A DNA stretch of 63,960 bases, the filler included, from Candidatus Fermentibacterota bacterium (GTDB taxonomy: Bacteria; JAFGKV01): NCBI GenBank assembly GCA_016928395.1. It is 5 parts of 5 records of this genome, joined end to end, with 100 filler letters (N's around TTAATTAATTAA, not from the genome) between each part and the next. Parts side by side here need not be neighbours in the genome. Positions count along the whole stretch, not along the records: positions 20,986 to 42,253 come from JAFGKV010000127.1; positions 42,354 to 55,861 come from JAFGKV010000129.1; positions 55,962 to 60,440 come from JAFGKV010000018.1; positions 60,541 to 63,960 come from JAFGKV010000168.1; 1 more part is not named here. One strand, written 5' to 3'. A model generated the notes under the pieces. That model was not told where the DNA came from, searched no databases, and saw only the letters and a list, made by a program, of their open reading frames with translations. The position numbers and the translations under genes were made by a program. Below, piece by piece: positions 28,742 to 60,720 of this stretch. Positions within the stretch are counted from its first letter, which is position 1; each line of letters opens with the position of its first letter.

Positions 28742-28771
28742 GGGGACTATTCTAAGATTAGAATAGTCCCC
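28742..28771. repeat. Palindrome family copy 1
   Basis: GGGGACTATTCTAA-GA-TTAGAATAGTCCCC, perfect 14-bp arms. Confidence 0.9.
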
Positions 28772-28871
28772 GCGGAGCAGTCAACGGGTCGGTCAGGACT
28801 CGTGCGGAGTAATGCGGGGTGGGGTTTCGCGCATCTTGGCTGCACGGAGACCATCGCGGCACCGTTGCCTT

Positions 28872-28930
28872 GTAGGGGCGACCGTCTCTGGTCGCCCCGA
28901 GTGCGGGAGGGCAGAGACGCCCTCCCCTAC
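28872..28930. repeat. GTAG-type REP doublet
   Basis: GTAG-GGGCGACC-gtctct-GGTCGCCC ... GGGAGGGC-agagac-GCCCTCCC-CTAC: two inverted GTAG-tagged hairpins. Confidence 0.75.
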
Positions 28931-29041
28931 GGGGATGTCCACCGCACCTCTGCCCTTATTGCGCTTGACTGCGGAGTCGCTGCCGCGCACTATCACGGTC
29001 TTGTTGTGTGCCTGTGGAATCCGCAACACAAGGAGGTTCGA

Positions 29042-29914
29042 ATGCGCGTGCTCATGGCCGTGTGCATGATGGCCCTGGCCTTGCCGGCCATGGCCTGGGA
29101 GAAATCGGCCGATCTCGGCCTGAACTTCAACCAGACTGCCTATAGCAACTCATGGACTGGCGGCGAGTCCGGCGCCATCACGTGGACCTTCACTGGCAAC
29201 CTCGCTGCCCAGAAACAGATGAGCCCCAAGGTCCATTGGGGCAACCAGCTCAAGCTCCAGTTCGGCCAGACTCACAATCAGGCCACTGCGGGTGATGGCT
29301 CAAAAAACTGGGAGTCTCCCCAGAAGTCATCAGACCGGATCTTCCTGGAGAGCATCGCCAAGTTGACCCTGGGCGCCTTTGTGGATCCATACACCGCGTT
29401 CACCTTCGAGAGTCAATTCTACGATGCCAGCGTGCCGCGCGTGCCGCGCTACATCAATCCCATGCTCCTCACGGAGTCTATTGGTGCCGGCAAGACCCTC
29501 ATCAAGAATGAGCACACGGAACTGCTCTCCCGTCTCGGGTTCGCCATCCGTGAGCGGTTCGACCGTGTGGTCATAGACATCGCCACAGAGGAGACCGAGA
29601 TGGAGACCACCACCGACGGCGGTCTCGAATGGGTCAGCGACTTCAGCCACACACTCAGCGACAACGCCAAGTATGTGTCGAAGCTGCGGGTGTTCCAGGC
29701 CGTCTTCAGCAACGCCGCCGATGATCTGGAGGGCTTACCCAACGAGGACTACTGGAAGACCGCCGACATCGCCTGGGAGAATGCGCTCTCGGCAACTGTC
29801 TCCAAGTACCTGCAGTTCTCTCTGTTTGCCGAAGTTCTCTACGACAAGGAACTCGATCTCCGGGGCCGCTTCCGCGAGGTCCTCGGCGTCGGAATCGCCT
29901 ACAAGCTGTTCTAA
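29042..29914 (+). CDS. DUF3078-like outer-membrane beta-barrel protein
   Basis: AAGGAGG RBS, signal peptide, NFNQTAYSNSWTGGE, amphipathic strands and a terminal aromatic motif (GIAYKLF). Confidence 0.8.
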   Translation: MRVLMAVCMMALALPAMAWEKSADLGLNFNQTAYSNSWTGGESGAITWTFTGNLAAQKQMSPKVHWGNQLKLQFGQTHNQATAGDGSKNWESPQKSSDRIFLESIAKLTLGAFVDPYTAFTFESQFYDASVPRVPRYINPMLLTESIGAGKTLIKNEHTELLSRLGFAIRERFDRVVIDIATEETEMETTTDGGLEWVSDFSHTLSDNAKYVSKLRVFQAVFSNAADDLEGLPNEDYWKTADIAWENALSATVSKYLQFSLFAEVLYDKELDLRGRFREVLGVGIAYKLF

Positions 29915-29996
29915 GCGCAAGGCAGCGTGCGCGAGACCGTCGCGGGCTGCCTGCTCGAGGGGTAGCGTGCGGGCTGCCGCGGTCGGAGGCCGATTC

Positions 29997-30953
29997 CTAC
30001 GCGGCGATTTCCTTTATGGCGAGTGCTGCCAAATCCATCTCGCCCACGCCCAACTCACGGGCGATGCGGATATGATGAAAAGGCGTGATGTCGCCCCAGA
30101 AGGCATGGGCGGTGTACGCATCAATGGCCACGGGATCGACGCCGGCGATGACAGTCTGGGCGACCCGCACCTCGCCGGGGCCGCTGGGGCCGTTGGTCAG
30201 GAGCACGTGGTTCGCATCCATGATGATGAGATCCTGCCGCACGGCCGAGTTCAGTTCCGCGATGCACCTATGGAGATCGAGCCTGTGGAATCGCAGGCGG
30301 TCCCAGGTGATGCCCATGAGGTTCTTCATCGACAGTGTCACGCCCGATCCGGCGTGATGCTTGGCGATGGGCATATTGATGAAGACATCGGCATCGAGCA
30401 CATCGGCCGATACCATGTCGGTGCGCAGGAGTACTCCGCGGGGAATCGGTATCTCCCGGTAGAGATCAGCCGTGGTGAGCGCTTTCACCGCGCCGCCAGC
30501 ACGTTCTGCGGCTGCGCCGATCCCGTTGGCGGCGAACAGGCTTGCCTCGTCATGGCTTACGAGCAGCACCTCCCTAGCCCCGGCCTTCATGCATCCGGAG
30601 ACGACCACCTCGACGAGATCCGGATGCGTGTTGATAGCCAGTTCCGGCCTGCCGCGTCCCACGGGATTCGGCTTGATCACCACCCGGCTGCCGGGCTTTA
30701 CGAAGGCGCTGAATCCCCCAAGCGCTTCCACGGCGGCGCGGCAGTTGTCCGCAGGAGACGGGCCTCTGGCGACGGCAAGATCAATGGGGAGGGTCAGGAG
30801 CCTATCCGCGGCGTACGCCAGCCCGGGTGATCCCAGTGCCGCGCCCGCACCCAGGGCGGCGGTCTTCCGGAGGAAGTCTCTGCGGGACAGCCTGCTCATG
30901 GCGTTCAGTAGTGTTCGCGCGGGACGACGGCTTCGTGGATCCTGGTCGTGCAT
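29997..30953 (-). CDS. DUF362 domain protein with Tat signal
   Basis: SRRDFLR twin-arginine motif, VVIKPN, NTHPD, INMPIAKHH, SMKNLMG and DPVAIDA. Confidence 0.9.
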   Translation of the reverse strand: MHDQDPRSRRPARTLLNAMSRLSRRDFLRKTAALGAGAALGSPGLAYAADRLLTLPIDLAVARGPSPADNCRAAVEALGGFSAFVKPGSRVVIKPNPVGRGRPELAINTHPDLVEVVVSGCMKAGAREVLLVSHDEASLFAANGIGAAAERAGGAVKALTTADLYREIPIPRGVLLRTDMVSADVLDADVFINMPIAKHHAGSGVTLSMKNLMGITWDRLRFHRLDLHRCIAELNSAVRQDLIIMDANHVLLTNGPSGPGEVRVAQTVIAGVDPVAIDAYTAHAFWGDITPFHHIRIARELGVGEMDLAALAIKEIAA

Positions 30954-30964
30954 GACCTCACCTC

Positions 30965-32530
30965 CTAGTTGTCGGCGCCTGCCAAGGCCTGGCGGGCCTG
31001 CGGGGTTCGTGGATCGTCAGGAGCGAGTTCGATGAACCGCCGGTAGGCATCACCGGCTCTCTCGCCATTGCCCAGTCTCTCGCAGGCGGTGGCCAGCATG
31101 AAGTAGGAGTTGGCGAAGAGCGAGTCGAGTTGAATAGCCCGCTCATATGCGCGCACCGCGTCTTCGACCTGCCCGGCCGCCAGAAGGCCTTCTCCAAGAC
31201 TGTCGTAGGCATTGGCATCCTCCGGCGCCGCCTCGACGTAACGGCGGAAGTAAGGGAGCGCGCGTTCCGCCTCATTCTGGCCGAGTAAGGCGTAGCCCAT
31301 TCGGTTGAGGGCGTTCGGGTCGTCTGGGTTCTCACTGAGGAACGCGGCGAACTCCCGTTCGGCGTCGTCGAGCCTGTTCTCCCCCGCATAGGCCATTCCC
31401 AACAGGATGCGGGTGTGCCCTTCGTCAGGCGCCAGGTCTCGCGCTTTCTCCAAAGCCGCCACGGCCTTGGCATTCGCACGCGACTGCAAATAGAACGTGC
31501 CCAGCGCGCGGTGTGCCGCCGGATCATCGGGAGTGCGCAGCGCCGTTGCCTCGGCATCCGCCACCATGGTGAAATGGTCGAGCTGGAGCTGGGCATTGGG
31601 CATCATACGCCGATCCGGCAATGACGCGAGCAGGGCGGCCAGCTCGCTGGCGCCGCGGGTAAAGTCGCCCTCCAGAGTCGTGGTGGCCACGACTCTGCGG
31701 AACGAGGCACAGAGCCGAAGCGTCTCATTCGCCGAGCGCGAAAGGACCGTGTCGCACCGGGCGATGGCCATTTCATAGTCGGGCACGGCGAAGTCCTGGG
31801 CGGTTCGGGCATAGACCAGATAGTCATCCCAGTCGAACTCAGCATGCCGGTCCACGAAGGATCGCTGCTGCAGCGCCACCCCGAATACCGGCGCGAACGG
31901 GTAGTCGCGGACCACACGGACGAAGCAGTCCGCCGCGCGCGTCGAGTCGCCAGCAGCCTGATAGGCCTCCCCGAGGCGAAACACGATCTGGGCAGCGGCA
32001 TGCGGCGCCAGGGAGGGCTGGAGCGCCTTCTCGTACAGCATGATCACGCGATCGCGGTCTCCGCTCTGGTAGAGGCAATCCGCAGCAGCCAGGGACACCT
32101 CATTCACCCACTGGGCCGACGGGGCCTCCGCTTCACGGCCGGCCAGTTCCAGGGCGCTGCCATAGGCCTCAGCCGCCTTTGCCCACGAGGAGGATGCCAC
32201 GAGGCATTCGGCCTTTCTGCGGGCCGCTTCCGGCGCATAGGCGCTTTCGGGGTAACGAGCGACAACCACATCGAACGCATCCACCGCGCCCACGGTATCC
32301 TGGAGCGCCAGGAGTCGCAGATTCGCAGCGCCGAAGGCGGCTGTGGCCGCGAGACGATGCTGTGGATCCTCGCGCAGGAGTCCCTCGTAGATCTCGAGAG
32401 CATCCTGGTAGTCTCCGGCCACTTCCAGGGCGACCGCATCACGGAAGTGCTCCCGGGCCTGGGAGCATGGCGGGCGGGTAATGAGCATGGCCATGGCGGC
32501 CCACGCTCCCCACGACAAGGGTCTGAACAT
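30965..32530 (-). CDS. Exported tetratricopeptide repeat protein
   Basis: GGAGGAG RBS, signal peptide, and multiple TPR units (YPESAYAPEA; PEDANAYDSLGE). Confidence 0.85.
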   Translation of the reverse strand: MFRPLSWGAWAAMAMLITRPPCSQAREHFRDAVALEVAGDYQDALEIYEGLLREDPQHRLAATAAFGAANLRLLALQDTVGAVDAFDVVVARYPESAYAPEAARRKAECLVASSSWAKAAEAYGSALELAGREAEAPSAQWVNEVSLAAADCLYQSGDRDRVIMLYEKALQPSLAPHAAAQIVFRLGEAYQAAGDSTRAADCFVRVVRDYPFAPVFGVALQQRSFVDRHAEFDWDDYLVYARTAQDFAVPDYEMAIARCDTVLSRSANETLRLCASFRRVVATTTLEGDFTRGASELAALLASLPDRRMMPNAQLQLDHFTMVADAEATALRTPDDPAAHRALGTFYLQSRANAKAVAALEKARDLAPDEGHTRILLGMAYAGENRLDDAEREFAAFLSENPDDPNALNRMGYALLGQNEAERALPYFRRYVEAAPEDANAYDSLGEGLLAAGQVEDAVRAYERAIQLDSLFANSYFMLATACERLGNGERAGDAYRRFIELAPDDPRTPQARQALAGADN

Positions 32531-32825
32531 ACACTCCTCCGAATGGAGATGAAGACGACCCGGCCGCACGACCGGCAGATTGATTCCCGAGCAGGGATGA
32601 TAGGAAGGTCGAAAGGCAAAGACAACACCCGAGCCCACGGCGGATAGCATATCCGCACGTAACGCCGGTAGCCAAGCAACAAAGCGGCCATGCGGTGATC
32701 AAGGGCCATCGGTCTCCAAGCCACCGTCTGCAGAGCGTGAGCCGAGGGGCGCGAGCGCACACGTGTACGCTGCGAGTGTACACCGGAGTCCTGGTGTCTC
32801 CCCCCGAAGCACAGTGATGAGCATA

Positions 32826-32855
32826 GCCAGCTATTCTAATATTAGAATAGCTGGC
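32826..32855. repeat. Palindrome family copy 2
   Basis: Perfect 30-bp palindrome GCCAGCTATTCTAATATTAGAATAGCTGGC. Confidence 0.92.
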
Positions 32856-33313
32856 CGGAACGGTTTCAGACGGATCGGGACACGGGCCTGCGGCCAATTC
32901 TGGGCACGGAATGCGGGTACCGGTACGGGCTTTGTTCGAGAGTACATGGGTCTGCCATCCGAACGCTCTCGCCATCGGACACACTCGATTCCGATGCCGA
33001 GTGCGACCCCGGCCCGTTCGCCCCCTGGCGACCAGGGACGATCACCCCTACAACGGCCGGTTGCCATCCGGCCGTGTCTCTCAACCCCGAAGAATCCGAG
33101 GGCATCCCCGCCGTCAGAGTCCCGCCGTGTTCCAGAGAACATGCAAGGCTCGTACTCATACTCGTACTCGTACTCGAGCTTGGATTCCCGGCTCGCCGAT
33201 TACGACAACGATACCGACACCGACCCCGAGGCGGGCGGAGTCAGAGCTCCGCCCCTACGAGGCAACGGTTCCTCGCAGAGCTGGGCGGGCCTGATAGCTG
33301 AGGGCCGATAGCT

Positions 33314-33432
33314 GACAGCCAACTGCGGGCCGTACTCTCAACCTCGAAGAATCTGAGGGCGCGTCGCGCCGTCAGAGTCCCGACTGAACCCTGAACCCTG
33401 AACCCCGAACCCCGAACCCTGAACCCTGAACC
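33314..33432 (+). repeat. Dispersed repeat element (copy C) with 7 tandem C(T/C)GAACC heptamers
   Basis: Matches 20987-21075. Seven heptamers counted at 33384-33432. Confidence 0.8.
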
Positions 33433-33462
33433 CTCTGAAACGTCACCTCGCCAGGCGAGGGT

Positions 33463-34758
33463 CTACACCGACTCGGTGACCGAACTGAAGGTGAAACCCT
33501 CGCTCATGACGGCGGGCACCCGCATACTCCCGTTCACGTACTCCGGCCGGCTCAGACCGACGATGTTCTTGAAGAGCGTTACAGGAGATTCGTTGAAGCG
33601 CAGGTTTTTCACCGGGCCCGTCACTACGCCGTTCTCGATCAGGAACAACCCGTCGCGGGTCATGCCCGTCAACAGCAGCTCCTTCCGGTCTACATAGCGA
33701 ATGTACCACAGCCGCTTCACCAGCAATCCACGGTGGCACGAGCCGACCAAATCCTCCACTGAGCGATCGTCGCCGCCAATGCACAGGGGGAAGAGTGATG
33801 GATCGGGAGACTCATTCTTCACGTGTGCCCAGTACCTCGTATGGTGCAGTCTGCGCACCACGCCGTCCTCGACCCATACGATGCGCCTCGAAGGAAGCCC
33901 GTCGTCGGAGAAGGGCGGCGCCGGAAGCCGCGGGTCATCGATCTCGGTGGTCAGGGTGAATCGCGAGCTGAAGAACTCTGTGCCCAGTGTGCCCGCAAAG
34001 ACAGTGCTTCCTTCCTCCCCTTCCCGGGCGCCCAGGCTCATAGCCGTGAACAGGAGCAGTTCCGCCACGGCCAGAGGCTCGAGGATTACGGTGTAGTCGC
34101 CTGGCTCCAGGGCCCGCGGATTCTGAGCGGCGTGGGCCGTGGCCGCGGCCCGGCCCGCGATCTCCTCAGGCGCGATATCCTCTGCCCGCCACGAGGCGCC
34201 CGCCGCATAGCCGCTGCCGTGGGCGCCGTGCATGGTGGTGGAGAGCGACAGCTTGGAGTGCTGGTCATAGCCGAAGAGCCCGAGCGTTGTCGCCAGCGCC
34301 GACACGCCGGACGAAGCGCTCATCAATCCACTGGGGACGAACCCCTGGGCCTTTGCCCGTTTGACAATGCCTGCCACATGATCCGCCAGAGCCGCAGGTG
34401 TCGCCTGAGCAACCTTCGGGTCGAACCGGGGCTGCGCCACAGGGTAGGATTGGGGGCCGAGGGGCGGTACGAACTCGGGGTCTTGTGGCGCTGCCAAGGC
34501 AATAGTCTGTGCCCGCTCTGCCACTCTCTCCAGTGACGCATCGTCCATGGAATTGATGATGGAACTTCCTTGACGCGTGCCGAAGGAGACTATCACCCGC
34601 AGTGATTCCTCCTCACCACTGCGGTTCTGGGTAATGGCCCCCTCCGCAAATCGCGTCGTAAGGCTTGCGCTGAAGTCATATTCGACCTGGGCCTGCGGCG
34701 CCGATATCCGTGAGAGAACCCGGCTCAGTAATGCCTGTACGTCGTCTTTGGTTCTCAT
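33463..34758 (-). CDS. pmbA: TldE/PmbA family protein
   Basis: TRFAEGAITQN, LEPGDYTVILEP, TGMTRDGLFLIENG and NLRFNES. Lacks HExxH. ATGA overlap with tldD. Confidence 0.88.
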   Translation of the reverse strand: MRTKDDVQALLSRVLSRISAPQAQVEYDFSASLTTRFAEGAITQNRSGEEESLRVIVSFGTRQGSSIINSMDDASLERVAERAQTIALAAPQDPEFVPPLGPQSYPVAQPRFDPKVAQATPAALADHVAGIVKRAKAQGFVPSGLMSASSGVSALATTLGLFGYDQHSKLSLSTTMHGAHGSGYAAGASWRAEDIAPEEIAGRAAATAHAAQNPRALEPGDYTVILEPLAVAELLLFTAMSLGAREGEEGSTVFAGTLGTEFFSSRFTLTTEIDDPRLPAPPFSDDGLPSRRIVWVEDGVVRRLHHTRYWAHVKNESPDPSLFPLCIGGDDRSVEDLVGSCHRGLLVKRLWYIRYVDRKELLLTGMTRDGLFLIENGVVTGPVKNLRFNESPVTLFKNIVGLSRPEYVNGSMRVPAVMSEGFTFSSVTESV

Positions 34759-36203
34759 ACCTTCGCCTCCCCTACGCGGATAGCGCGGAACCGGCAGTAG
34801 CTGGCGCCATGGGTCATTCTCATCCTCTGGGACGGCTCGCCTTTGCCGCAGTTCATGAGGCCGAACGGCTTCCAGTGGGAAGGGCCGGCAATGGCATCAC
34901 AGCTTCCCCAGAACTGACGCGTCTGCGACTGATACGTGACCTTCTTCAGCGGCTTCGTCACCGTGCCGCCCTCGATCATCCAGAACATGTCGCCGCCGAA
35001 CTGGAAGTTGTTGCGCATCTGATCGATGGAGAAACTCCCGCGCCCCTGAATGTAGACGCCGCGGTCAACACCGGCGATCAGCGACTCGGGGGTTACCTCC
35101 TCGCGTGAACCCGGCTCCATGTACAGATTGGGGATCCGGTTGATGGGGAAACTCCGGAACCCGTCGGCGCGGCAGCACCCTACCGAGTGCTCCCAGCCGA
35201 TCAGGGGGGCGGTCTCCCGGGTTGTCCCCAGGCCGACCAGAATGCCATCTCGGATGATGGGAAACTTCTGCATGGCCACCCCGTCGTCGTCAAAAAACCA
35301 GCTCCCCGCACCGCCCGGCATGGTATTGTCTACCGTGAAGTTCACGATCTCGCTGCCGTACTTGAGGCTTCCGACATCATTGGGACGAATGAAACTCCGG
35401 CCTGCGAAGTTGCTCTCCCACCCCAGGATGCGATCCAACTCCGTGGGATGGCCCACCGATTCGTGCATTGTCAGGGCTAAGTGATCGGGGTCAAGAACAA
35501 GATCCATGACGCCCACGGGGCTGGGATCCGCGCAGCACTTGAGCACTGCCTCTTCGGCCCACCAGCGCGCCCGGCCGGCCAGGTCCAGAGAGCGGATGAA
35601 CTCATACCCGGCCTGTCGTGCCCCGCCCTGGTAGCTGCGTTCCTGCGACTCGCCGTTCTTCACGGCCACGGCCTGGAGCATGGGGTTGGCGAAGGTGGTG
35701 GTCATGTCGACGTAGGTGCCGTCGGTGGTGGCGATGATCCTGTGCACCCGCGAAAACTCAAGCAGGCCAAGGGTCATGACCACACCGGGCACCCCAAGCA
35801 TGGCGTCGCACGCCGACAACAGCAGATCGGCCTTCTCGCCGTGGGGAACGGCGAATGGGTCTTCCTCGCACGGACCGATGCACGTCGCAACGTGGGCGGG
35901 CTCGGGCGCCATGACGAGAGGCGGCGTACGCCTGGCCTTGGATGATGCCTGGGCTGTGGCGACGGCACGATGAGCCGTCTTCGCCACGGCGTCCCTGGAA
36001 AGCGTGGTACTTGAGGCGAAACCCCATGCACCATCGATGAGCATGCGCACCGCATACCCGAAGCTCTCAGCCTCATCGATCAGCCGGAGTGATCGCCTCT
36101 TGACGAAGATGCGGTTCTCGCGTTCTTCCACCACGCGCATGTCGGCAAAACTGGCCCCGGCTTCCTGGGCGATGCCCAGGGCGATCTCAGTGTATTCCCT
36201 CAT
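34755..36203 (-). CDS. tldD: TldD family metalloprotease
   Basis: HESVGHPTELDR zinc motif, SFSIDQMRNNFQF and NCGKGEP. Confidence 0.93.
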   Translation of the reverse strand: MREYTEIALGIAQEAGASFADMRVVEERENRIFVKRRSLRLIDEAESFGYAVRMLIDGAWGFASSTTLSRDAVAKTAHRAVATAQASSKARRTPPLVMAPEPAHVATCIGPCEEDPFAVPHGEKADLLLSACDAMLGVPGVVMTLGLLEFSRVHRIIATTDGTYVDMTTTFANPMLQAVAVKNGESQERSYQGGARQAGYEFIRSLDLAGRARWWAEEAVLKCCADPSPVGVMDLVLDPDHLALTMHESVGHPTELDRILGWESNFAGRSFIRPNDVGSLKYGSEIVNFTVDNTMPGGAGSWFFDDDGVAMQKFPIIRDGILVGLGTTRETAPLIGWEHSVGCCRADGFRSFPINRIPNLYMEPGSREEVTPESLIAGVDRGVYIQGRGSFSIDQMRNNFQFGGDMFWMIEGGTVTKPLKKVTYQSQTRQFWGSCDAIAGPSHWKPFGLMNCGKGEPSQRMRMTHGASYCRFRAIRVGEAKV

Positions 36204-36228
36204 GCCCTCTCCTCTCTATGCTATCACC

Positions 36229-39200
36229 TTACGACAGGGCAGGTAGCAGGGTTGGGCTCCGCGATTGCCCCACCGGGCCCGGATGACTCCGGGTGCCGGG
36301 CTCTTCACCCTCGGGACGGTAGGCACGCAACTCAATGGATTCGATGCGAACCCGACCGACCCCGTCGGGAAATTCCAGGCGGAGTCTCGTCACGGATCCA
36401 CGCCACACCCATGCCGGCAGCAGCCCCACATCGACTCGATAGGTGTGCGTCGTGTCGTCTGCCTCCATGAAAAACGCCATGGCCGCGGAACCGTCCAGCG
36501 TGTCTCGACGGGCTGAGGCAAAAACGACCCGCGCCGTGCCGACGACATCGCATGCCAGCCTCAGCACCAGCGTATGACCCCCATCGGGCTGGATGAACAC
36601 GGGCGGTGATGTCAACGCCTTGGCGTGGCCCGAAACTGCGGCGGGCAGGCCCGCGCCGGGCGAGGATTCCTCCCGAAGGCCTCGAATCCCTGACCAGGTC
36701 GACAAAATCTCGGAAGCCGACCATCGCCGCACGAGATCGGACTCCTGCGGCAGGTCGCCAAGATACCGAGGCACATGCCCCACATCGACCGCAAAGGGTG
36801 CCGATGCGATGAAGTTCCACACTGCCTGATCGCGGGGAATTGGCCGGCCGCGCGCTTCCAGAATGATCGTGTCGTCTACGAGAGCGGAAGGGGCGTAGTT
36901 CCGATAGAGGTGGCGCGTGATCAGCGGATGGCGCAGCGGATGAATGAGCCAGTCATACCCGTATTTCTCCGCATCGCCCGAGGGGAAGAGCACCATCCGG
37001 GGGCGTACCGCGGCCAGGGATGCGACGACCTCGCGCTGCGCGGCCAGGGATGCGGCATAGGTTGTCTGCACGTAGCGCGTGGGGCAGGGCCGGTCTGCCA
37101 GGAAGTAGAGCAAGCCGCCATTGAGGAAGTCATAGAATCCCTCATTCGGACCAAGAGTCTTGTTCACGTAGTCCACCACGTGCTCGATCCATGCGGCGGT
37201 CCCGGGGTCGGCCACCACGCCGGCGCCCGCCCGCCGTAGCCGAAGCTCCTTGAGGCGTGCGGATCCATCCCGCCGCGACTCAGGCCCCAGGCGCCCGGAT
37301 AGAATGCGGGCGGGGGCGGTTTCCGGATCCACCACCATGATCCGGAACCCGAGAAATAGCAAGACGCCCAACGCCATGGCATGGGAGACGGCACCCCGGC
37401 GGGCGGTGCGCAGCGCGTTCGCATGATGCTGGATGAGCACTACCAGCACCACGAACACCAAAGGAAGGAGCTTGCCGACATGATCCATATCGGGCCTTCG
37501 AATGACCGCCCGGAAGAAGGCCGCCGAACCCGCAACGACCACCGGGAGCGCGAGGGTTGATCCGGCTACCTGACCCAGAGAACGGCGCGCGGCCAGATGC
37601 GCCAGACCCCACACGATGACGAAGGGAGGCAGATAGAGGGCCGTTGCCTTGGACTGAACGAGGCGACCCAGTCCTTGTGCCCCGTGGCGCAGGAGCATCC
37701 AGGGAAGTTGGGGATACGGCCGGGATGAGCGATCCGACAGCCCTCCCACGATGGAGAATGAGGTCTGGATGAAATGCGGCAGGGCTCCCCGTACTGCGAG
37801 ATAGATCAGAGGAACCGCGGCGCCCACGAGCCCCCCGCACAGCACGGCAGCCGTCGACCGCCACCATGGCCGCGGCCACGCCGGATCGGGCGGGAGTGTG
37901 GCCCCGTAGGCCAGAGTGGCTGCCACCGCCACCGCCGCCGCAATTCCGCCATCCAAGCTGTAGAACACTGCCAGAGCCCCCAGACAGCCCGCGGCGAACG
38001 CGGGTCGGCGATCACGACACCGGCGCACGAGCCACATGGTCATGGCCGCATACGCGAGGAATGGCAGCCAGTACCGCCCGTGGGGTGGCGGGAGGGTGAA
38101 TGCCGCGACCGCAGCAGCAGCCACGCCCTTTAGAGGCGAGCCGAGGCAGATCGCCAGCAATACGTAGAGCGCGACCATGGCAAAGGGATCCACGGCGTGC
38201 TGGATCGCGCGTACGCCATGCACCGACCAGTCACGGGCCAATCCCATCTGCGGCACCAGGCCGTTCTCGGCCAGGCCATGCCAGAGGAATACCTCCTTGT
38301 AGGGGGCTGCCCCCTGGGCGATGGCCGCCGCGGGGGTGAGCCGCTCGCCCTCATGGTAGAGGTCGATGGGTTCGCGCACATCGTGTACGTAGCACGTGGC
38401 GTAGAGCACGGCGGGGGCCCACACCCACCAGAACAGCCGGGAGGTCAGCCGCCGGGAGATGGCCGAAGCGCGCCCGGCCGCCACGGCCGCGAGAATGCAG
38501 GCGGCGATGACCGCGACGACCGCGGCAGTTCTCAGGGCATGACTGGCAGGATCGGCATTGAGAATCACCAGGCCGCCAAGGGGAAAGACCCCCGCCGCCG
38601 CGACGCGCCGGGCATTCTCTCGCCCCATGCGTAGCGACAGTAGCCCTGAGGCCGCCGCCCATAGGGCGCCCACTAAGACACTACACACGAGCGCGAACAC
38701 GATGGAGGCACGGCGCAGGGTCGCGAAATCTTCTCCAGGCCCCCACGCGATCATGGAGGCGAGGCCGATGCCAGCCAAGACTATGGCGCCCAGGGTTTCC
38801 GCCTCGAAAACGCGACGAGATGCGCCCGATTCGTTCGCGGGCGGGCCCGGCGACTCGACGGAAGTCGATGAGAGAGCCCTCGCCCTGCCCTTGAAGGAGA
38901 CCGCCGTGAGCAGGGCATAGGCGGCGCCGCAGATCGCCAGAGCCGAGCCTACACCGATGCCAGCGGCGACCGGGGCGGGCCAGGCCAGGAGCGCGGCAGG
39001 AGCCACGATCGCCAGAAGACTCCCGGGCCCGGCTGGTCTGTGCAACCGAGCGGCGCGCAGGGCCACCACACACGCCAGCGGCACAATGATGCAGGCCATG
39101 AGGAAGATGGGCACTTCGCGGCCCTTGGCATAGCCTTCGACCACCGCCTGGTTGATGACATCGCCATCCCAGCGCAGGACCGGCGCCACGTGGGGCGCAA

Positions 39201-39321
39201 GCAGGGCCACGACTCCCAAGCCGAATGCGCCGGCGCACAGCGCGACGAAGGTGGCCGCGCCCGATGGGCCGACCGGGGATACTCGCCCGACGGCCGAGCG
39301 AGGCATGTCATGCCTCGTCAC
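36229..39321 (-). CDS. Large polytopic membrane protein, GT-C-like core with extra N-terminal TM block and soluble C-terminal domain
   Basis: Many TM segments; DLYHEGE...GAAPYKEVFLWHG resembles the first-loop motif of GT-C proteins. Start uncertain (GTG 39321). Confidence 0.6.
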   Translation of the reverse strand: MTRHDMPRSAVGRVSPVGPSGAATFVALCAGAFGLGVVALLAPHVAPVLRWDGDVINQAVVEGYAKGREVPIFLMACIIVPLACVVALRAARLHRPAGPGSLLAIVAPAALLAWPAPVAAGIGVGSALAICGAAYALLTAVSFKGRARALSSTSVESPGPPANESGASRRVFEAETLGAIVLAGIGLASMIAWGPGEDFATLRRASIVFALVCSVLVGALWAAASGLLSLRMGRENARRVAAAGVFPLGGLVILNADPASHALRTAAVVAVIAACILAAVAAGRASAISRRLTSRLFWWVWAPAVLYATCYVHDVREPIDLYHEGERLTPAAAIAQGAAPYKEVFLWHGLAENGLVPQMGLARDWSVHGVRAIQHAVDPFAMVALYVLLAICLGSPLKGVAAAAVAAFTLPPPHGRYWLPFLAYAAMTMWLVRRCRDRRPAFAAGCLGALAVFYSLDGGIAAAVAVAATLAYGATLPPDPAWPRPWWRSTAAVLCGGLVGAAVPLIYLAVRGALPHFIQTSFSIVGGLSDRSSRPYPQLPWMLLRHGAQGLGRLVQSKATALYLPPFVIVWGLAHLAARRSLGQVAGSTLALPVVVAGSAAFFRAVIRRPDMDHVGKLLPLVFVVLVVLIQHHANALRTARRGAVSHAMALGVLLFLGFRIMVVDPETAPARILSGRLGPESRRDGSARLKELRLRRAGAGVVADPGTAAWIEHVVDYVNKTLGPNEGFYDFLNGGLLYFLADRPCPTRYVQTTYAASLAAQREVVASLAAVRPRMVLFPSGDAEKYGYDWLIHPLRHPLITRHLYRNYAPSALVDDTIILEARGRPIPRDQAVWNFIASAPFAVDVGHVPRYLGDLPQESDLVRRWSASEILSTWSGIRGLREESSPGAGLPAAVSGHAKALTSPPVFIQPDGGHTLVLRLACDVVGTARVVFASARRDTLDGSAAMAFFMEADDTTHTYRVDVGLLPAWVWRGSVTRLRLEFPDGVGRVRIESIELRAYRPEGEEPGTRSHPGPVGQSRSPTLLPALS

Positions 39322-39352
39322 AGGTACACCTTCACGTCGGGGAAGACCTCCC

Positions 39353-40900
39353 TCACCTGAGCCCCAGGCGATAGACCCCGGTGGTGCCCTCGCCGTAAGG
39401 GCCATCCCATTGTTCGGCCATAATCCGGTTGGCCCTTACCCCGCATGAGCGCAACATCGGCCACACTCGTTTCTCCAGGACGCGGTCTCTCGTGGAGATT
39501 TCCAAGTAGTACGCGGACTGCCGTAGGATATCGCACCCTTCGGTGAGGCCGACCACACGCAATGGCGCATGTACGTACCCCAAGGCAGGAACGCTAAGAG
39601 CCTCAGCCGCTTTCCCCGCCGCCACGATGGGGAGATCCCCCGCTGCTGCCCGAAGGTAGTCTATCGCGGCCTTGTGGGCGCGAATGGTCCCCCTGTACCC
39701 AAGGGTGCTCTCATGTACAGACCATTTGTCCATCTTCCAGACCTCGGCTGAGAACGCCGCGGAAATCATAAGGCCGGCCGAAACCGCCACGATTGGCCAT
39801 CCGGCGCGGCGCCGGACCAATGCAGCCGCGGAACAGATGGCCAGACCGGGCCATGCCGGCAACATGTACCGGGGAAATCGGTAGTGATACGTGCAGAAGA
39901 GCAGCGTCAGGGCCAGGGCCAGCAGCGGCACGATCCTCCAGAAGCCACCTCTGGCCCAACAGAGAGCAGCCACCACCACGAAAAGGCCCACCGCGGCCCC
40001 GTCGGCCGCTCCCATGCGAGGCATTGCCGCGGCCCCTACCACGCAAAGGGCGCAGACAGCAAGGGGGATCGCCATGCGCCAGCCGCGCCGAACTCCCAGC
40101 AGCACTGCCGCGCTGAACGGCACCCAGGCCCACTGATCGACCACCAGTCGCCGCACCCAGTACACCCAGCCGTCAAGACCCGCTCGGACATTGTGCAGCA
40201 GCGAGAAGTCCTCCACGTTCTCGGGGTAAAGGAACCACCCGAAGCGGACCTTGCACGCCACGAGCCACGCCGCATAGACGATCACCGGAACCCACAGGAA
40301 AACCTGCCGGAATCGTGGTCTCCAAAGACCGAGCGTTCCCATGGCAGATAGAACCGCGGGTGCCAGTATTCCGGGCGCCTTGGTGAGTGGGGCCAAGGCG
40401 CCTGCCAGCAGATAGATGGCCGGCCATCCCCGGTGGGCGGCGAGCAGGGTCAGGATCGAGAGCGCAGCCACCGGTATGTCCAGCCGCACCAAGGTGGTCT
40501 GCACCAAGAACGGGGGCCATGCCGCCACCAACAGCGCCGCCATTGACCCTGCGGAAGACCCGGCAAGGCCGGCGCCCAAACCATAGACCGCCGCCACCAT
40601 CACCATGGAGAACACCACGGATAGGGCATGAGCAGTCTCGACGTGGGGGCCGAACAGTCGGAATGCGATCCCCTCCAGAAGAAAAAAGAACGGGGGATGC
40701 ACCTCGTCCTCGATGAACGGATCGAAGGTGCGCATCATGTGCAGGGCATTGGGTATCATGTAGGCCTGGCCGTCGCCAAACTCGGGCTGTCGAAGTGTCG
40801 CGATCCCCGCGCCTGCCGTGATAAGGAGGCCGGCGACAAGCCCCCAATGGGCGCCCAGGGTTCGCAGGGTTCGTGATCGCGCGTGTGTCATGAGGCCCAT
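39353..40900 (-). CDS. ArnT/PMT-like (GT39/GT83-type) membrane glycosyltransferase
   Basis: GDGQAY...HPPFF loop, TLVRLD, LTK and PRYMLP motifs, many TM helices. Confidence 0.75.
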   Translation of the reverse strand: MGLMTHARSRTLRTLGAHWGLVAGLLITAGAGIATLRQPEFGDGQAYMIPNALHMMRTFDPFIEDEVHPPFFFLLEGIAFRLFGPHVETAHALSVVFSMVMVAAVYGLGAGLAGSSAGSMAALLVAAWPPFLVQTTLVRLDIPVAALSILTLLAAHRGWPAIYLLAGALAPLTKAPGILAPAVLSAMGTLGLWRPRFRQVFLWVPVIVYAAWLVACKVRFGWFLYPENVEDFSLLHNVRAGLDGWVYWVRRLVVDQWAWVPFSAAVLLGVRRGWRMAIPLAVCALCVVGAAAMPRMGAADGAAVGLFVVVAALCWARGGFWRIVPLLALALTLLFCTYHYRFPRYMLPAWPGLAICSAAALVRRRAGWPIVAVSAGLMISAAFSAEVWKMDKWSVHESTLGYRGTIRAHKAAIDYLRAAAGDLPIVAAGKAAEALSVPALGYVHAPLRVVGLTEGCDILRQSAYYLEISTRDRVLEKRVWPMLRSCGVRANRIMAEQWDGPYGEGTTGVYRLGLR

Positions 40901-40907
40901 ACGACTC

Positions 40908-51251: not shown

Positions 51252-52181
51252 TCAGAGCCCGAGAATCCTCCCAAGGACCAGACCCGCCGTGAACAGGAGC
51301 CCAAAGGTCAGGTTGAGTTGGGCGGTGGCCGCGTCGAGTACGACGAAGGGCGGGGGATCGCCCGTCGTGGGCCGGGCGTATGCACTACGGATGAGCCCGG
51401 TTGTTTGAGGGATAGCCAGAAAGACCAGGAGGCATGTCCACGGCATCCGCGGTGTGATAGCCCAGACCTGGCTCGCTGCAATCATGAGAACGGCCAGGAG
51501 GAGAGCGCCGGCGGTGAGCACGGCATAGTACAGGAAGGACCCACGATCACCGAGACGCTGGGCCAGTGACCGTGCCCCCAGTTCTCCGTCGCGTCCGATA
51601 TCGCGCCAGTTATTGGCGTGAAGAATGCCGACGACGAGCATGGCCTGCGGGAAACCCCATACCACGGGCGTCCATGTCAGGCGCCCTGTCTGCACGAACC
51701 AGCTTCCGGCTGCGACACCGACGCCGAAGGCGAACAGAATCGCGAGGTCACCGAGGCCGCGATACTTCAGATGCAACGGGGGCGCCGTGTAGCACACCGC
51801 AAGGAGCAGGCCGCCCAGGCCGATGGCCGCCACCAGCACGCCTCTGAGGAACACGAAGTAGATTCCGATTCCGGCGCCAAAGATGGCGCAATAGGTGGCG
51901 AGCTTCAGGGCCTGCCGCGCCGTGATCAGCCCCCGGACCACTGCGCCGCTCACCGGGATGACATGCCGGTCGATGCCCTTCGCATAGTCATAGGCGTCGT
52001 TGACCAGGTTGCCCGCCGCATGGATCAAGGCCACACCCAGGCTTGCGAGGAACAGGTGAATGACATTGAGGGGCACCCCAGTATACCATGCCGCCGCCGC
52101 ACCGATGAGCGCCGGCATGATGGATGCCGGAAATGCATACGGCCGAATAGCAATCCAGAAAACTCGAAGTTGCGCGATCAT
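51252..52181 (-). CDS. menA: 1,4-dihydroxy-2-naphthoate prenyltransferase (UbiA family)
   Basis: IRPYAFPAS, NLVNDAYDYAKGID, YTAPPLHLKYRGLGD and NNWRDI. Confidence 0.88.
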   Translation of the reverse strand: MIAQLRVFWIAIRPYAFPASIMPALIGAAAAWYTGVPLNVIHLFLASLGVALIHAAGNLVNDAYDYAKGIDRHVIPVSGAVVRGLITARQALKLATYCAIFGAGIGIYFVFLRGVLVAAIGLGGLLLAVCYTAPPLHLKYRGLGDLAILFAFGVGVAAGSWFVQTGRLTWTPVVWGFPQAMLVVGILHANNWRDIGRDGELGARSLAQRLGDRGSFLYYAVLTAGALLLAVLMIAASQVWAITPRMPWTCLLVFLAIPQTTGLIRSAYARPTTGDPPPFVVLDAATAQLNLTFGLLFTAGLVLGRILGL

Positions 52182-52337
52182 GACGACCAGTGCCTGCCCG
52201 TGCGTACTCGTCGACTGAGTATCATCCGGAAGTAGAGCGGGGTAGCCTCGCCTGGTTTGACAAAGCGGTCAGATGAGAAGCGCAGATGACTGTCTCGGCC
52301 ATGTGTTGCTGAGCAATTCGCACTCACGCCAGCGCCG

Positions 52338-54692
52338 TCACCGAGCATCCCCGTTGGAGTCTGATTCTGATTCCGACTCTGACAGGTATCCCAGGAGCCG
52401 TAGCTGCTCCCGCAGTTCGCCCGTTGGGCTGAATATGCGTGGCCTCGTCTTCGGCTGCAGCGGCCTCTCGGCGCGCGTCAGGGCAGACTGAAGGCTTTCG
52501 GCCATGGCGCGAGCAATCCCTGGCTCGTCGGCCAGGCGGTTCCGTGTCTCAGCCGGGTCTTCATCTAGGAAATAGAGTGCCGGTTCAAGGGAGTAGGGAT
52601 CTCTTCGCGCGACACCTGCGGCGCCCTTCTCATCCAGAATGGCGATGTACTTCATGCTGCCTGAGATGAGGCATGCTCTTCGCGTCTTCGATCGGCACTT
52701 GTCATTCAGGGCAAGCACTGGCACCACTCGGTGCTGCGTTTTCATCTCCAACAAGGGTCTGACACTGGCTCCGTCGCAACCCTGCGGGACAGTGAGGCCC
52801 AACAGCTCACACACGGTCGGCATAAGATCAACGGTGCTGATGGGGATATCGACATATCTCGTCCCTCGGCAACTGATACCGGGAGCATGGAGATAGAACG
52901 GTACACTCAGCAGTTCCGTGTGCACCGAGGATGCCGAGTGCTCGGCGTATAATCGGGAGTGATCCCAGAACTCCTCACCATGGTCGCTAAGCACTATGAC
53001 CACCGTATTCGACCAGAAGCGCAGGCTGTCCAACAGGGCGAACAGCCCCACAGTTGCATCACATGCGTTGGCAACGCCACCATCATACGCCGCTTGCACA
53101 TAGGTGGTCTCCGCAGGGGTCAGGTGTTGCCAGGGAATCGAACTCGGGTCTATCGGATTCTCTCCCGCGGACAGGTCGCCAAGCCGGCCCCGCGGTAGTT
53201 CCCGGCAGAACCTGTCCCTCGTGTAGGGCACGTGGCTTTCGTAGGTATGCACAAAGAGGAAGAACGGACGGGGCGGGGTACCTCTCAGCCAGGCACGGAG
53301 CGGTGGAAAGACATCCTCGACCTTGCCGTATCCATCGAGTGGGTAGTGGAACTCGTGGAACCCCTGTTCGAACCCTGGGGTGCGCAGTGCGCCTCCACCC
53401 GTGAAGGCCGCGCAGTAGTACCCGTTCTTCCGCAGGATCTCGCTAAGGGTTGTGTACTGGCGAGGAACTACTTCTTCCGTATGTATGTTGAGGAAACGCG
53501 AAGTCATGAACTTGGCAGTTGCAGGCACTGTCACTGGCCCCGCCGAGTAGGCCTTCCGAAAGATGAAGAAGCCCTTCTCGTCTGCAATCGAATCCAGCCG
53601 GGTTGATGTGGGCCGTGTGGTGTAGCCATGGGACCCCAGCCGGTCAGCTCGCATCGTGTCAAGATCGATCAGAATCACATTGTACGCGCCTGGAGGCATG
53701 CTCCTCCGGGTGAGGATCACCGGTTCGCCAATCGCGATCACCTCAGAGGGCCGCCCCTCCGAAATGAACCTGAGGCTGTCGCACCGATCCGGGAGAGGCT
53801 CCTTGAGGGTGTGGGTGAGCCATGGCCCATCTCGTGTGCCCGGACTATCTTGAAGCGGGGCTTCCCGCCACTGGCCGTCGATCCAGATCTCGGCACGGAC
53901 GCCGGCAATCCCAAGAAGCTCTGCCGAGTGGAACTGCACTCTTGCTTCTACATCTCTCTTTGGAAGGGTCAGCGAAAGCGTATCTTGACCAACAAGAGCA
54001 ACGCAGTCCCTCGTGACCCCATTGGCCGAAAGGGGAAACTTCCGCATCATTAGCATGCCATCGGGCGTATCACCGAATCCACGCACGTCTAACGAGGCCA
54101 GGGCTCTCGCTCGCTCGCGCTCCCAATTATCCGTAGCGCGGGGCATTGCGAGGATTCTGACTCCTTGGATCGGTATCTCTTCATCACGCGGTAGAGGGAA
54201 CCTGATCGCCAGTGTCGTGACCCCCTCGTGAGGTACTTCGAGCCACAACTGTGTGCGTTTCCTCAAGAAGACTTCGCTCCTGCTGGAGTCACCATCTCCC
54301 TTCGCGACAAGAACTACGGGGTGAGAGAAGTCGATCGGCTCTTTCGGGAAGAGTGAGCAGAGCATGATCTCGTCTTCCGATAGAGAAGCCCGAACCTTCA
54401 GCTCGACCTGTTGGCCCTGCCCGAGCAGTGACCGGCTTTCCGCCCGAAGCCCGATGGCGGCGATCTGGTCTCCGTACCTGATTTCGTCATCGATGCTGCC
54501 GATATCCGCAACCACTCGCCATGGCCCGGCAGCCTCAGGCTCAGGGATCTGGTCCAAGAGGCCGACAACTGCCGGGTGCTCCGCCGCGCAGCCACAGAGA
54601 AGCACGGCCGCAGCGATGAGCGCCGGCATGATGGATGCCGGAAAGGCATAGGGCCGCATCGCAATCCACAAGCCTCGAAGTTGATCCTTCAT
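52338..54692 (-). CDS. Sulfatase-like hydrolase/transferase, probable lipoprotein
   Basis: NVILIDLDTMRADRL, FFLFVHTYESHVPY, SDHGEEF, VDLMPT and LRLLGYL. Lipobox-like LLCGC. Confidence 0.85.
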   Translation of the reverse strand: MKDQLRGLWIAMRPYAFPASIMPALIAAAVLLCGCAAEHPAVVGLLDQIPEPEAAGPWRVVADIGSIDDEIRYGDQIAAIGLRAESRSLLGQGQQVELKVRASLSEDEIMLCSLFPKEPIDFSHPVVLVAKGDGDSSRSEVFLRKRTQLWLEVPHEGVTTLAIRFPLPRDEEIPIQGVRILAMPRATDNWERERARALASLDVRGFGDTPDGMLMMRKFPLSANGVTRDCVALVGQDTLSLTLPKRDVEARVQFHSAELLGIAGVRAEIWIDGQWREAPLQDSPGTRDGPWLTHTLKEPLPDRCDSLRFISEGRPSEVIAIGEPVILTRRSMPPGAYNVILIDLDTMRADRLGSHGYTTRPTSTRLDSIADEKGFFIFRKAYSAGPVTVPATAKFMTSRFLNIHTEEVVPRQYTTLSEILRKNGYYCAAFTGGGALRTPGFEQGFHEFHYPLDGYGKVEDVFPPLRAWLRGTPPRPFFLFVHTYESHVPYTRDRFCRELPRGRLGDLSAGENPIDPSSIPWQHLTPAETTYVQAAYDGGVANACDATVGLFALLDSLRFWSNTVVIVLSDHGEEFWDHSRLYAEHSASSVHTELLSVPFYLHAPGISCRGTRYVDIPISTVDLMPTVCELLGLTVPQGCDGASVRPLLEMKTQHRVVPVLALNDKCRSKTRRACLISGSMKYIAILDEKGAAGVARRDPYSLEPALYFLDEDPAETRNRLADEPGIARAMAESLQSALTRAERPLQPKTRPRIFSPTGELREQLRLLGYLSESESESDSNGDAR

Positions 54693-54726
54693 GGTCCCCT
54701 CTCCCGCAAGAAGAACTCCGGCGTCA

Positions 54727-54746
54727 CTATTCTAATGTTAGAATAG
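54727..54746. repeat. Palindrome family copy 3
   Basis: CTATTCTAA-TG-TTAGAATAG. Confidence 0.85.
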
Positions 54747-56968: not shown

Positions 56969-56986
56969 ATCGGCGTATGCCCGACC

Positions 56987-58106: not shown

Positions 58107-58136
58107 AGCGCCGCGGAAAGCCCCAGGATGAGCAGA

Positions 58137-58988: not shown

Positions 58989-59199
58989 TGGTCTATCTCC
59001 AGTCGCTCGAGAAATCTTCAGACAGCATCCCACCTGGGCTGACAGCCCTTGTCGAGGCCGGGGGAGAGGGAAGCCGCCTGCGCCGCGGAAATCTGGTTGC
59101 CCCCGGTCGCCGCCTTGGCGTCATGCAGACTCTATACGTCGCCCCACAGCCCGTCAAGCCGGCTGCGGGTGCCCTGGGTCCCGATGCCCTTCTCGGGAT

Positions 59200-59484: not shown

Positions 59485-59519
59485 CTAGGTGCCGGGACAA
59501 TCGCGGATGCGCCAACTCA

Positions 59520-60266
59520 TCACCGCGGCATCAACGCGAACACACCCCAGCCTAGATACTCCCGAGTGTAGACGACGTAGCGCTCGGGTTCCGAGGTCAG
59601 TTCTGCTCGAACCTCTTCCGCAAAGTCGTCGTCGGGATTGTCTTCAAGCCATCGGCGCATCGTCAGCCACTTGGCCGCCTCGTATCTGTCCCAGCTGTCT
59701 TGGTCTGCCAAAACCATTTCCACGACATCGTAGCCGAGTTGACCGAAGGACGCGAGTATTCCCGGAAGCGTGAGGAAGTCGGCTATCGCGTTGGCACCAC
59801 ACCCTTTGGCTACGTCTTCCGCCGGCGGCAGCTGCCGCCAGTAGGGCTCGCCGATGAGGATGATCCCTCCGGCGCGCAGGCTCCGCGCAAGAAGCTCGAC
59901 AGTGCCGGCGACTCCCCCAGCGATCCACGTGGCACCGACGCAGGCAGCCACGTCGACCTTCTCGTCAGAGACATAGCCGGCAGCATCACCATGGATGAAC
60001 TCGACTTGATCGGCGACGCCGAGTTCCTCAGCACGGAGTCTTGCCTGTGCGGTGAACAACTCGCTCATGTCGACGCCGGTGCCGATGACGCCGTGGTCGC
60101 GTGCCCAGGTGCAAAGCATCTCCCCCGAGCCGCTGGCGAGGTCGAGCACCCGGGCGCCCGGTTCCAGACGCAGCGCCGCGCCGAGCGTGGCGAGCTTCTC
60201 GGGTGTGAACGGGTCGTGAATGCGGTGAGCACTTTCAGTGATGTTGAACATTCGTGGGATATCCAC
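59520..60266 (-). CDS. Class I SAM-dependent methyltransferase (YjhP-like)
   Basis: ESAHRIHDP, VLDLASGSGE, ACVGATWI, IGEPYW and REYLGWGVF. Confidence 0.9.
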   Translation of the reverse strand: MDIPRMFNITESAHRIHDPFTPEKLATLGAALRLEPGARVLDLASGSGEMLCTWARDHGVIGTGVDMSELFTAQARLRAEELGVADQVEFIHGDAAGYVSDEKVDVAACVGATWIAGGVAGTVELLARSLRAGGIILIGEPYWRQLPPAEDVAKGCGANAIADFLTLPGILASFGQLGYDVVEMVLADQDSWDRYEAAKWLTMRRWLEDNPDDDFAEEVRAELTSEPERYVVYTREYLGWGVFALMPR

Positions 60267-60292
60267 AGTGGTAAATCTCCTTCCGGATGTAA

Positions 60293-60440
60293 CTAGATTC
60301 GGTCTCGGTCTGACGTGTTCGACCTGCCGGTGTGCTTGAAGTAGTCCCGAGAGGCCTTCGCGATGTCCTTCCGCTTCCGAACCTCCTGAGCGCGCAGCCG
60401 AAAGTCTGTCTTCATCGCAGCGACCTCCGCCTCGCGCAAC
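60293..60440 (-). CDS. 3' end of a gene cut by the spacer, possibly RsgA GTPase C-terminal helix
   Basis: Open frame LREAEVAAMKTDFRLRAQEVRKRKDIAKASRDYFK...*, a basic helical tail reminiscent of RsgA. Confidence 0.35.
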
Positions 60441-60540
60441 NNNNNNNNNNNNNNNNNNNNNNNNNNNNNNNNNNNNNNNNNNNNTTAATTAATTAANNNN
60501 NNNNNNNNNNNNNNNNNNNNNNNNNNNNNNNNNNNNNNNN
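60441..60540. other. Artificial contig spacer
   Basis: N-run with TTAATTAATTAA. Confidence 0.97.
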
Positions 60541-60560
60541 CGGTGGGGTGTGTTGGGCCG

Positions 60561-60603
60561 GTCAGACGCGTCGGACCTGTCGGACGGGTCGGACCTGTCC
60601 GAC
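60561..60603. repeat. 9-nt tandem repeat GTC(G/A)GACNN (encodes SDRSDPSDRSD on the minus strand)
   Basis: gtcagacgc gtcggacct gtcggacgg gtcggacct gtccgac. Confidence 0.8.
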
Positions 60604-60692
60604 TCCCTCATTCCTCCCCTCCTCCGATGATTTCCTCCAGCAGCCCTTCGGTGGGTCGGTCCGGCGCCAGGGGTGCCCACCCAGCCGTCACC

Positions 60693-60720
60693 GGCACTAT
60701 TCTACTATGAGAATAGTGCC
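60693..60720. repeat. Palindrome family copy 4
   Basis: GGCACTATTCT-ACTATG-AGAATAGTGCC, 11-6-11 layout. Confidence 0.85.

Follow-up and report, generated by a model that had tools for sequence, protein, structure and literature searches.

Introduction

Tyrosine recombinases act on core sites such as dif and pdif, in which inverted arms of about 11 bp surround a centre of 6–8 bp. They need identical centres in partner sites, and the Xer-type plasmid site families combine conserved arms with a variable 6-bp centre. The attC sites of integrons consist of R and L boxes with a GTT-type core, form an imperfect stem with extrahelical bases and lie in arrays beside an integrase gene; CIRCE, the operator of HrcA, is an inverted repeat with a free spacer, of which a few copies occupy set positions in the promoters of a single regulon. 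Repetitive extragenic palindromes (REPs), in the excerpted account of PMC3686654, are defined by a 5' GT(A/G)G tetranucleotide with a hairpin-forming palindrome downstream, are numerous and almost exclusively intergenic, and occur mostly as inverted doublets (REPINs) or in higher-order clusters, the cognate RAYT gene being flanked by REPs. Here we analyse a stretch of 63,960 nucleotides from assembly GCA_016928395.1 (the window; five contigs joined by linkers of the form N44-TTAATTAATTAA-N44), in which the palindrome CTATTCT-N6-AGAATAG recurs between genes, and compare it with these systems. The palindrome looks like a hitherto undescribed family within a known kind, the dispersed extragenic palindromes.

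Results

The palindrome recurs in the window beyond chance

We found four exact matches to CTATTCT-N6-AGAATAG in the window, with cores at 28747–28766, 32831–32850, 54727–54746 and 60697–60716. The second contig holds two of them and the third and fifth contigs one each. An earlier sequence-only reading of this DNA had likewise reported three contigs, and the outer arms which it gave are those present in the sequence. With these arms, the first copy (w1, 28742–28771) reads GGGGA-CTATTCT-AAGATT-AGAATAG-TCCCC and has five outer pairs; the second (w2, 32826–32855), GCCAG-CTATTCT-AATATT-AGAATAG-CTGGC, is a perfect 30-bp palindrome; the third (w3, 54727–54746), CTATTCT-AATGTT-AGAATAG, is the core alone with no outer pair; and the fourth (w4, 60693–60720), GGCA-CTATTCT-ACTATG-AGAATAG-TGCC, has four outer pairs.

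Base composition predicts about 3.6e-5 exact copies per window, and 100 dinucleotide-preserving shuffles of the window yielded no exact match and a mean of only 0.41 matches at three mismatches, on which grounds a chance origin was rejected. No extra site appears in the window at one, two or three mismatches, nor when one mismatch per arm and a spacer of 0–14 nt are allowed. Lone arms are at chance level (CTATTCT at 2231 and AGAATAG at 58494, both within open reading frames [ORFs]). The four copies, with perfect stems of 9–15 bp, make up four of the 14 perfect hairpins in the window with a stem of at least 9 bp and three of its five AT-rich islands (at least 13 A/T per 16 bases). Their density, 4 per 63.5 kb, would mean tens of copies per Mb.

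The same palindrome is present in Candidatus Eisenbacteria Prado127

A scan of genome contigs for the exact motif listed at least 117 loci, 113 of which were single matches in unrelated, mostly AT-rich organisms. Four listed loci (L043, L052, L061 and L073) come from one metagenome-assembled genome (MAG), Candidatus Eisenbacteria Prado127 (JALOPK01), at 63–67% GC, where composition predicts about 0.0003 copies per Mb. The formate–tetrahydrofolate ligase (FTHFS) encoded in the window has its best match, at 82% identity, in a protein named Candidatus Eisenbacteria (the next stands at about 65%), and the window encodes a protein with a type IX secretion system (T9SS) tail; judged by its proteins, the window is part of the Eisenbacteria lineage. 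No similarity outside the motif was found between the window and the Prado127 loci. On these matches the family is so far found in two Candidatus Eisenbacteria genomes, and the fact that, among the listed matches, all four high-GC family members lie in one MAG suggests a narrow clade with many copies. The family statistics below rest on these eight copies (four from the window and four from Prado127), the Prado127 copies being exact by ascertainment.

The plasmid collection gave no match to the motif and the phage collection only matches at E of about 7, inside genes of AT-rich phages; with nothing similar annotated in either collection, a plasmid or phage element was rejected. Two listed high-GC loci, L014 1001–1020 (Micromonospora) and L098 301–320 (Microbacterium), both carry CTATTCTAG-NN-CTAGAATAG, with 4 and 11 further outer pairs, respectively. 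These actinobacterial palindromes may constitute a separate family.

Invariant arms, a drifting centre and complementary outer arms

The consensus of the eight copies is gGCA-CTATTCT-AAyATT-AGAATAG-TGCc. Not one of the 112 arm bases has changed, and this includes 56 arm bases in the window that are free of ascertainment. The centre departs from AATATT at 9 of 48 bases, each time from A/T to G/C, giving seven different hexamers in the eight copies and four in the four window copies (AAGATT, AATATT, AATGTT and ACTATG). Drift in this direction is what is expected of unconstrained sequence in a 62–65% GC genome, and the complete lack of arm changes beside such a centre indicates that the arms are under selection and the centre is much freer. 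The contrast between invariant arms and variable centre, remarked on by the sequence-only reading in four copies, thus extends to eight.

That reading had also described outer arms that differ in sequence and yet remain complementary. Complementary runs beyond the core measure 5, 5, 0 and 4 pairs in w1–w4 and 9, 4, 1 and 2 pairs in the Prado127 copies, so that five of the eight copies have a run of at least four pairs, compared to a background probability of 0.0054 over all positions of the same sequences (binomial P=2.5e-10, or 2.9e-8 when the two GGCA copies are counted once). The covariation of the arms, which the earlier reading had proposed to examine, is significant for the five pairs adjoining the core: these were 67.5% paired versus 51.6% in shuffles (a level reached by 8 of 500), with a covariation score of 0.493 versus 0.261 (reached by 6 of 500), and slid controls were 22–52% paired. 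An alignment with MAFFT of the eight copies plus 40 nt on each side revealed no homology past about 5 nt of flank; three copies have GGGCA on one side in common, and no direct repeats (target-site duplications) were found around the core among the aligned copies.

Because most copies have a GC-rich complementary flank of 4–9 bp, a stem of 12–16 bp is possible on either strand. Calculated fold energies as RNA and DNA were −24.9 and −12.6 kcal/mol for w1, −21.4 and −13.4 kcal/mol for w2, −7.9 and −5.9 kcal/mol for w3, and −17.2 and −10.1 kcal/mol for w4. Over the eight copies, the RNA fold energies of those with such a clamp range from −17 to −28 kcal/mol and the DNA energies from −10 to −17 kcal/mol; the three without one have −7 to −13 and −4.5 to −8 kcal/mol, respectively. 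Compensatory arms had been taken as a sign of selection on a hairpin or cruciform. Their complementarity is upheld, but selection is not required to explain it, since template switching creates perfect multi-base complementary stems in one event (PMC8794818, in the portion cited).

Comparison with described systems

RAYT transposases mobilise REPs and REPINs. The palindrome resembles REPs and REPINs, as far as the cited portions of PMC3686654, PMC3116915 and PMC3337134 describe them, in being a short hairpin palindrome that is intergenic, seemingly numerous, lineage-specific and constant in sequence across copies, and its perfect 9–15 bp stems agree with the hairpin element of the REP definition excerpted from PMC3686654. 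It differs in having an AT-rich instead of a GC-rich core, in the variation of flanks and centre around an invariant inner stem, in its full symmetry, hence the lack of a strand cue, and in the absence of a RAYT from the 64 kb.

Like dif and pdif, the palindrome has inverted arms around a 6-bp centre, a total length of about 28 bp, inner arm bases that are the most conserved and a centre that varies; in 11-6-11 form its consensus is GGCACTATTCT-AATATT-AGAATAGTGCC, of which the outer 3–4 bp differ among copies. Unlike dif and pdif, it has only 7–8 bp conserved per arm, identical arms and covarying outer positions, and it occurs in many chromosomal copies, each with its own centre, with no recombinase among 50 ORFs. 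CIRCE shares with it the invariant arms, the variable spacer and possible action in both DNA and RNA, whereas the palindrome is dense, lies beside unrelated genes and also between convergent ones, and has copy-specific complementary flanks. An attC site was rejected on the perfect stems, the lack of a conserved GTT box and the scattering of single copies; an intrinsic terminator, because none of 16 tails has five or more T in 8 bases; and an ordinary operator, on variable distances, unrelated neighbours, a copy between convergent genes and the lack of variants at 1–3 mismatches.

FRT, the Flp target of the yeast 2-micron plasmid, contains CTATTCT-CTAGAA-AGTATAG and matches 13 of the 14 specified bases of the motif (PMC3797059, in the part cited). 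FRT belongs to a eukaryotic plasmid system, with 13-bp arms around an 8-bp spacer and other arm bases unlike the flanks of the copies; because arms and spacer are parsed differently and the flanks are unlike, the match is most likely a coincidence. Rfam 15 had no match in the window at the gathering score or at E≤1, and the window has no tRNA. Among the papers listed by literature searches, those matching the motif words deal mostly with primers, CRISPR or FRT constructs and none with a family of bacterial repeats, and none of those on Eisenbacteria treats repeats in genomes.

Genomic context of the copies

All eight copies are intergenic. In w1 the outer arm begins 14 nt past the stop codon (28725–28727) of a 689-amino-acid ORF (26658–28727, + strand), as the sequence-only reading had stated, and 275 nt before the start of a DUF3078-family gene at 29042. 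w2 lies in a large gap, 180–300 nt upstream of a TPR gene (− strand; start at 32650, or at 32530 with a Shine–Dalgarno sequence) and 612 nt after the stop (33463) of a PmbA/TldD-family gene. w3 was placed by the same reading about 35 nt upstream of a sulfatase gene, and is in fact 34 nt upstream of the ATG (54692) of a sulfatase-domain gene (− strand), 213 nt after the stop (54960) of the preceding 279-amino-acid ORF (− strand). w4 is separated by 152 nt from position 60541, where the fifth contig begins, and follows the stop (61060) of the gene for the T9SS-tail protein (− strand) by 343 nt. In Prado127, L043 follows a 6-phosphogluconate-dehydrogenase-family gene by 139 nt and precedes a DUF4126 gene by 61 nt; L052 is in the middle between two convergent genes, whose stops are 115 and 110 nt away; L061 is 35 nt before a PadR-family regulator gene (438–965, − strand); and L073 is 245 nt after a DUF6029 gene.

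Distances from copy to next start are therefore 34, 35, 61, 180–300 and 275 nt, and outer arms are shortest in the two copies nearest to a start codon. Each of the seven copies with an identifiable neighbour (the right-hand neighbour of L061 being left out) has a gene reading toward it, but 75% of intergenic gaps have a gene reading in, so that 7/7 gives only P of about 0.13. None of the copies with identifiable neighbours lies in a divergent promoter gap, and no second copy occurs within 1 kb of any of the eight copies, where the only half-site is a single CTATTCT at L073:747, in the end of a gene. The genes beside the copies have unrelated functions. In agreement with the sequence-only reading, the copies occupy no single regulatory position; together with the location of L052 between convergent genes, this means that an ordinary operator does not account for all copies. 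The PadR-family gene beside L061 is one regulator among about 14 neighbouring genes, which is not beyond chance.

The gap that holds w1 (28728–29045, between the 689-amino-acid ORF and the DUF3078-family gene) folds beyond shuffles (z=−3.98) and also has GC hairpins at 28875–28898 and 28905–28926, whose loops, GTCTCT and AGAGAC, are mutually complementary; it has no Rfam match, and it may be a structured leader. Elsewhere in the window, a GC hairpin with a 14-bp stem at 10430–10465 stands 12 nt after the stop of an OmpA-family gene and is followed by only TTT, and may show what the usual 3'-end hairpins of this genome look like. Ten 90-nt repeats at 9168–10039 encode thrombospondin type 3 repeats in the OmpA-family protein. 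A 1034-amino-acid protein (23496–26600, − strand) with a partial kinase-like match, a NACHT/NB-ARC-type ATPase and TPR repeats is, by its domain matches, a STAND-type signalling protein.

Rearrangement scars and cognate enzymes

The sequence-only reading had placed copies near rearrangement scars and suggested a family of recombination or gene-capture sites. It located w2 in a repeat island: an 89-nt repeat (80% identical) does exist, at 20987–21075 (the contig start) and 33314–33402 (in the gap holding w2), followed by runs of the heptamer GAACCC[T/C] at 33386–33433 and 21059–21078, but its sequence is unlike the palindrome and it lies about 460 nt from w2. The hsdM remnant proposed near w4 is not supported: the stop-free ORFs of that region matched no Pfam family at E≤10.

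An 87-nt duplication (29 codons, 86% identical) joins 52096–52182 and 54607–54693, the gene starts of a UbiA-family prenyltransferase (51252–52181, − strand) and of the sulfatase-domain gene (52338–54692, − strand). To judge from the two sequences, an N-terminal membrane segment seems to have been duplicated or converted recently; they cease to be similar at the start codon, which is 34 nt away from w3. With a duplication that ends short of w3, a distant repeat and a remnant without Pfam signal, we could not sustain an association of the copies with scars.

A Pfam scan of 50 window ORFs, none under 90 amino acids, found no recombinase, integrase, transposase, HUH enzyme or transcription factor, in line with the earlier statement that the window holds no cognate enzyme.

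Discussion

We tentatively read the family, with doubts set out below, as a REP-like extragenic hairpin or cruciform repeat (in the broad sense, not a canonical REP), whose arms are read by a symmetric protein and whose GC clamp is built by template switching, selection or both. The symmetric protein is proposed because the arms are invariant beside a GC-drifting centre: a predicted two-fold symmetric, sequence-specific protein would read the AT-rich arms and so keep them under purifying selection against genomic GC pressure. Replication template switching on the palindrome could make the GC clamp in one step, and the clamp would persist wherever a stable hairpin or cruciform brings a benefit or does no harm, as after gene ends and between convergent genes, and be missing from cores located 34–35 nt before a start codon. 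What a copy does would depend on context, a copy at a 3' end acting as hairpin or roadblock and one next to a gene start offering an AT-rich, −10-like patch (TAGAAT).

Several observations weigh against this reading. It rests on only eight copies, four of which come from an exact-match scan. A GT(A/G)G head is found in only 1 of 16 flanks (eight copies, both orientations) and no REPIN doublet occurs, all eight copies being singletons, which rules out a canonical REP. The scan of 50 window ORFs turned up neither a RAYT or other transposase nor a DNA-binding protein. Copied repeats normally share flanks and centre and leave degenerate relics, yet the flanks and centres of the palindrome differ and no relic was found among the sites searched. 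Covariation over the whole 15-pair structure is not significant (reached by 66 of 500 shuffles), and 23 of the 113 unrelated listed loci also have at least four outer pairs, many with T-runs after them, which shows that natural matches to a palindromic pattern often have extension alone. The association of short arms with nearness to a start codon is post hoc (two of eight copies, a 1 in 28 event). Finally, a dimeric protein bound to double-stranded DNA would explain two-fold symmetry that includes the AATATT centre no less well than a reader of hairpins.

This last point leads to the main rival, which is possible and which we consider less probable than a REP-like repeat: the core would be a double-stranded DNA site of a dimeric global regulator or nucleoid-organising protein, and the outer complementarity a neutral by-product of template switching. 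The half-sites ATTCT-N6-AGAAT are spaced like a CRP-type site. Perfect two-fold symmetry extending to the palindromic consensus centre, arms that stay invariant while the centre drifts, and the standing of the copies as the main AT-rich islands of the window are all consistent with such a site, as are the three copies 34, 35 and 61 nt upstream of starts, L061 among them preceding the PadR-family gene; template switching could build the outer arms without selection (PMC8794818, in the portion cited). Regulon sites, however, are normally degenerate, and here 4/4 window copies are exact with none at 1–3 mismatches, at a density (4 per 63.5 kb) that is high for an operator. The functions of the neighbouring genes are unrelated, w1 follows a stop codon by 14 nt, L052 is flanked by convergent genes, and no regulator gene was found in the 50 window ORFs. 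Extended arms in five of eight copies (P=2.5e-10) are also much to leave to a neutral process.

We consider it unlikely that the element acts at the RNA level, as a 3' untranslated region hairpin that works in either orientation and that ends transcription with the help of a protein, stabilises the RNA or signals its processing. Since the core is a palindrome, transcripts of both strands carry the identical hairpin, clamped copies fold at −17 to −28 kcal/mol, and L052 is midway between convergent genes. The 7/7 copies with a gene reading toward them, at stop-to-core distances of 19, 110/115, 139, 213, 245, 343 and 612 nt, point the same way, but amount to only P of about 0.13. T-rich tails are missing (0/16 with at least 5 T in 8 bases), three copies are weak-stemmed (−7 to −13 kcal/mol), and Rfam gave no match at the gathering score or E≤1. 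A requirement for structure alone would, moreover, allow covariation in the inner stem, which is invariant.

A special promoter, with outward-facing TAGAAT −10-like boxes on both strands, is improbable. TAGAAT or GAGAAT does end 2 nt inside each end of the core, two copies stand 34 and 35 nt before starts with a Shine–Dalgarno sequence, and AT-rich patches are otherwise very rare in this genome; however, no −35-like hexamer is found at the right spacing, L052 lies between convergent genes and w1 just after a stop, and TAGAAT outside the motif (6/10) is not in intergenic gaps of the ORF map, and so is unlike a general −10 box. A sigma-70 consensus scan of 21000–40999 found 4 sites versus 3.3 expected, showing no enrichment, and a terminator consensus scan of the same region likewise showed none.

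We assign a low probability to the copies being acted on, as extruded hairpins or cruciforms, by an enzyme that is as yet undescribed. The enzyme could be a relative of tyrosine recombinases or telomere resolvases that cuts 6 bp apart across the dyad; it would read the 7-bp AT-rich arms, and the copy-specific centre and clamp would serve as an address so that only like or sister copies react. If true, an uncultured phylum would have a site for chromosomal structuring or gene mobilisation that is of a new kind.

Least probable of all is the earlier idea that these are sites of a tyrosine recombinase (Xer or pdif-like, 11-6-11) or of a hairpin-acting recombinase that mark rearrangement or gene capture: the 11-6-11 consensus, the conserved arms and variable 6-bp centre as in Xer-type plasmid sites, the bracketing of three genes by w1 and w2 (4.1 kb apart), the 87-nt duplication near w3 and the 13/14 FRT match (PMC3797059, as excerpted) speak for it, but the four window copies have four centres, so that no pair could exchange strands, only 7–8 bp per arm are conserved and outer arm positions covary, the 50 ORFs contain no integrase, recombinase or HUH domain, the duplication ends at an ATG 34 nt from w3, the hsdM remnant near w4 has no Pfam signal, FRT flanks are unlike those of the copies, and tens of such sites per Mb would destabilise the chromosome. 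With differing centres, short conserved arms and scars that are weak or unverifiable, we regard it as unsupported.

Dispersed extragenic palindromes are well studied mainly in Proteobacteria, and the one described here is from Candidatus Eisenbacteria, a phylum without a cultured member. Its two-layer conservation is unusual, an invariant AT-rich inner stem and a free centre being combined with a copy-specific complementary GC clamp. Interest would rise sharply only with the discovery of an enzyme that acts there. Should the pattern hold across the genome, read-out of sequence by a protein would be separable from a pure requirement for structure within one 30-bp element, and the family would be a natural case for testing stem-building by template switching. 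The family points to a putative sequence-specific protein that could be fished with a 22-mer, and the palindrome offers a practical lineage marker in metagenomes.

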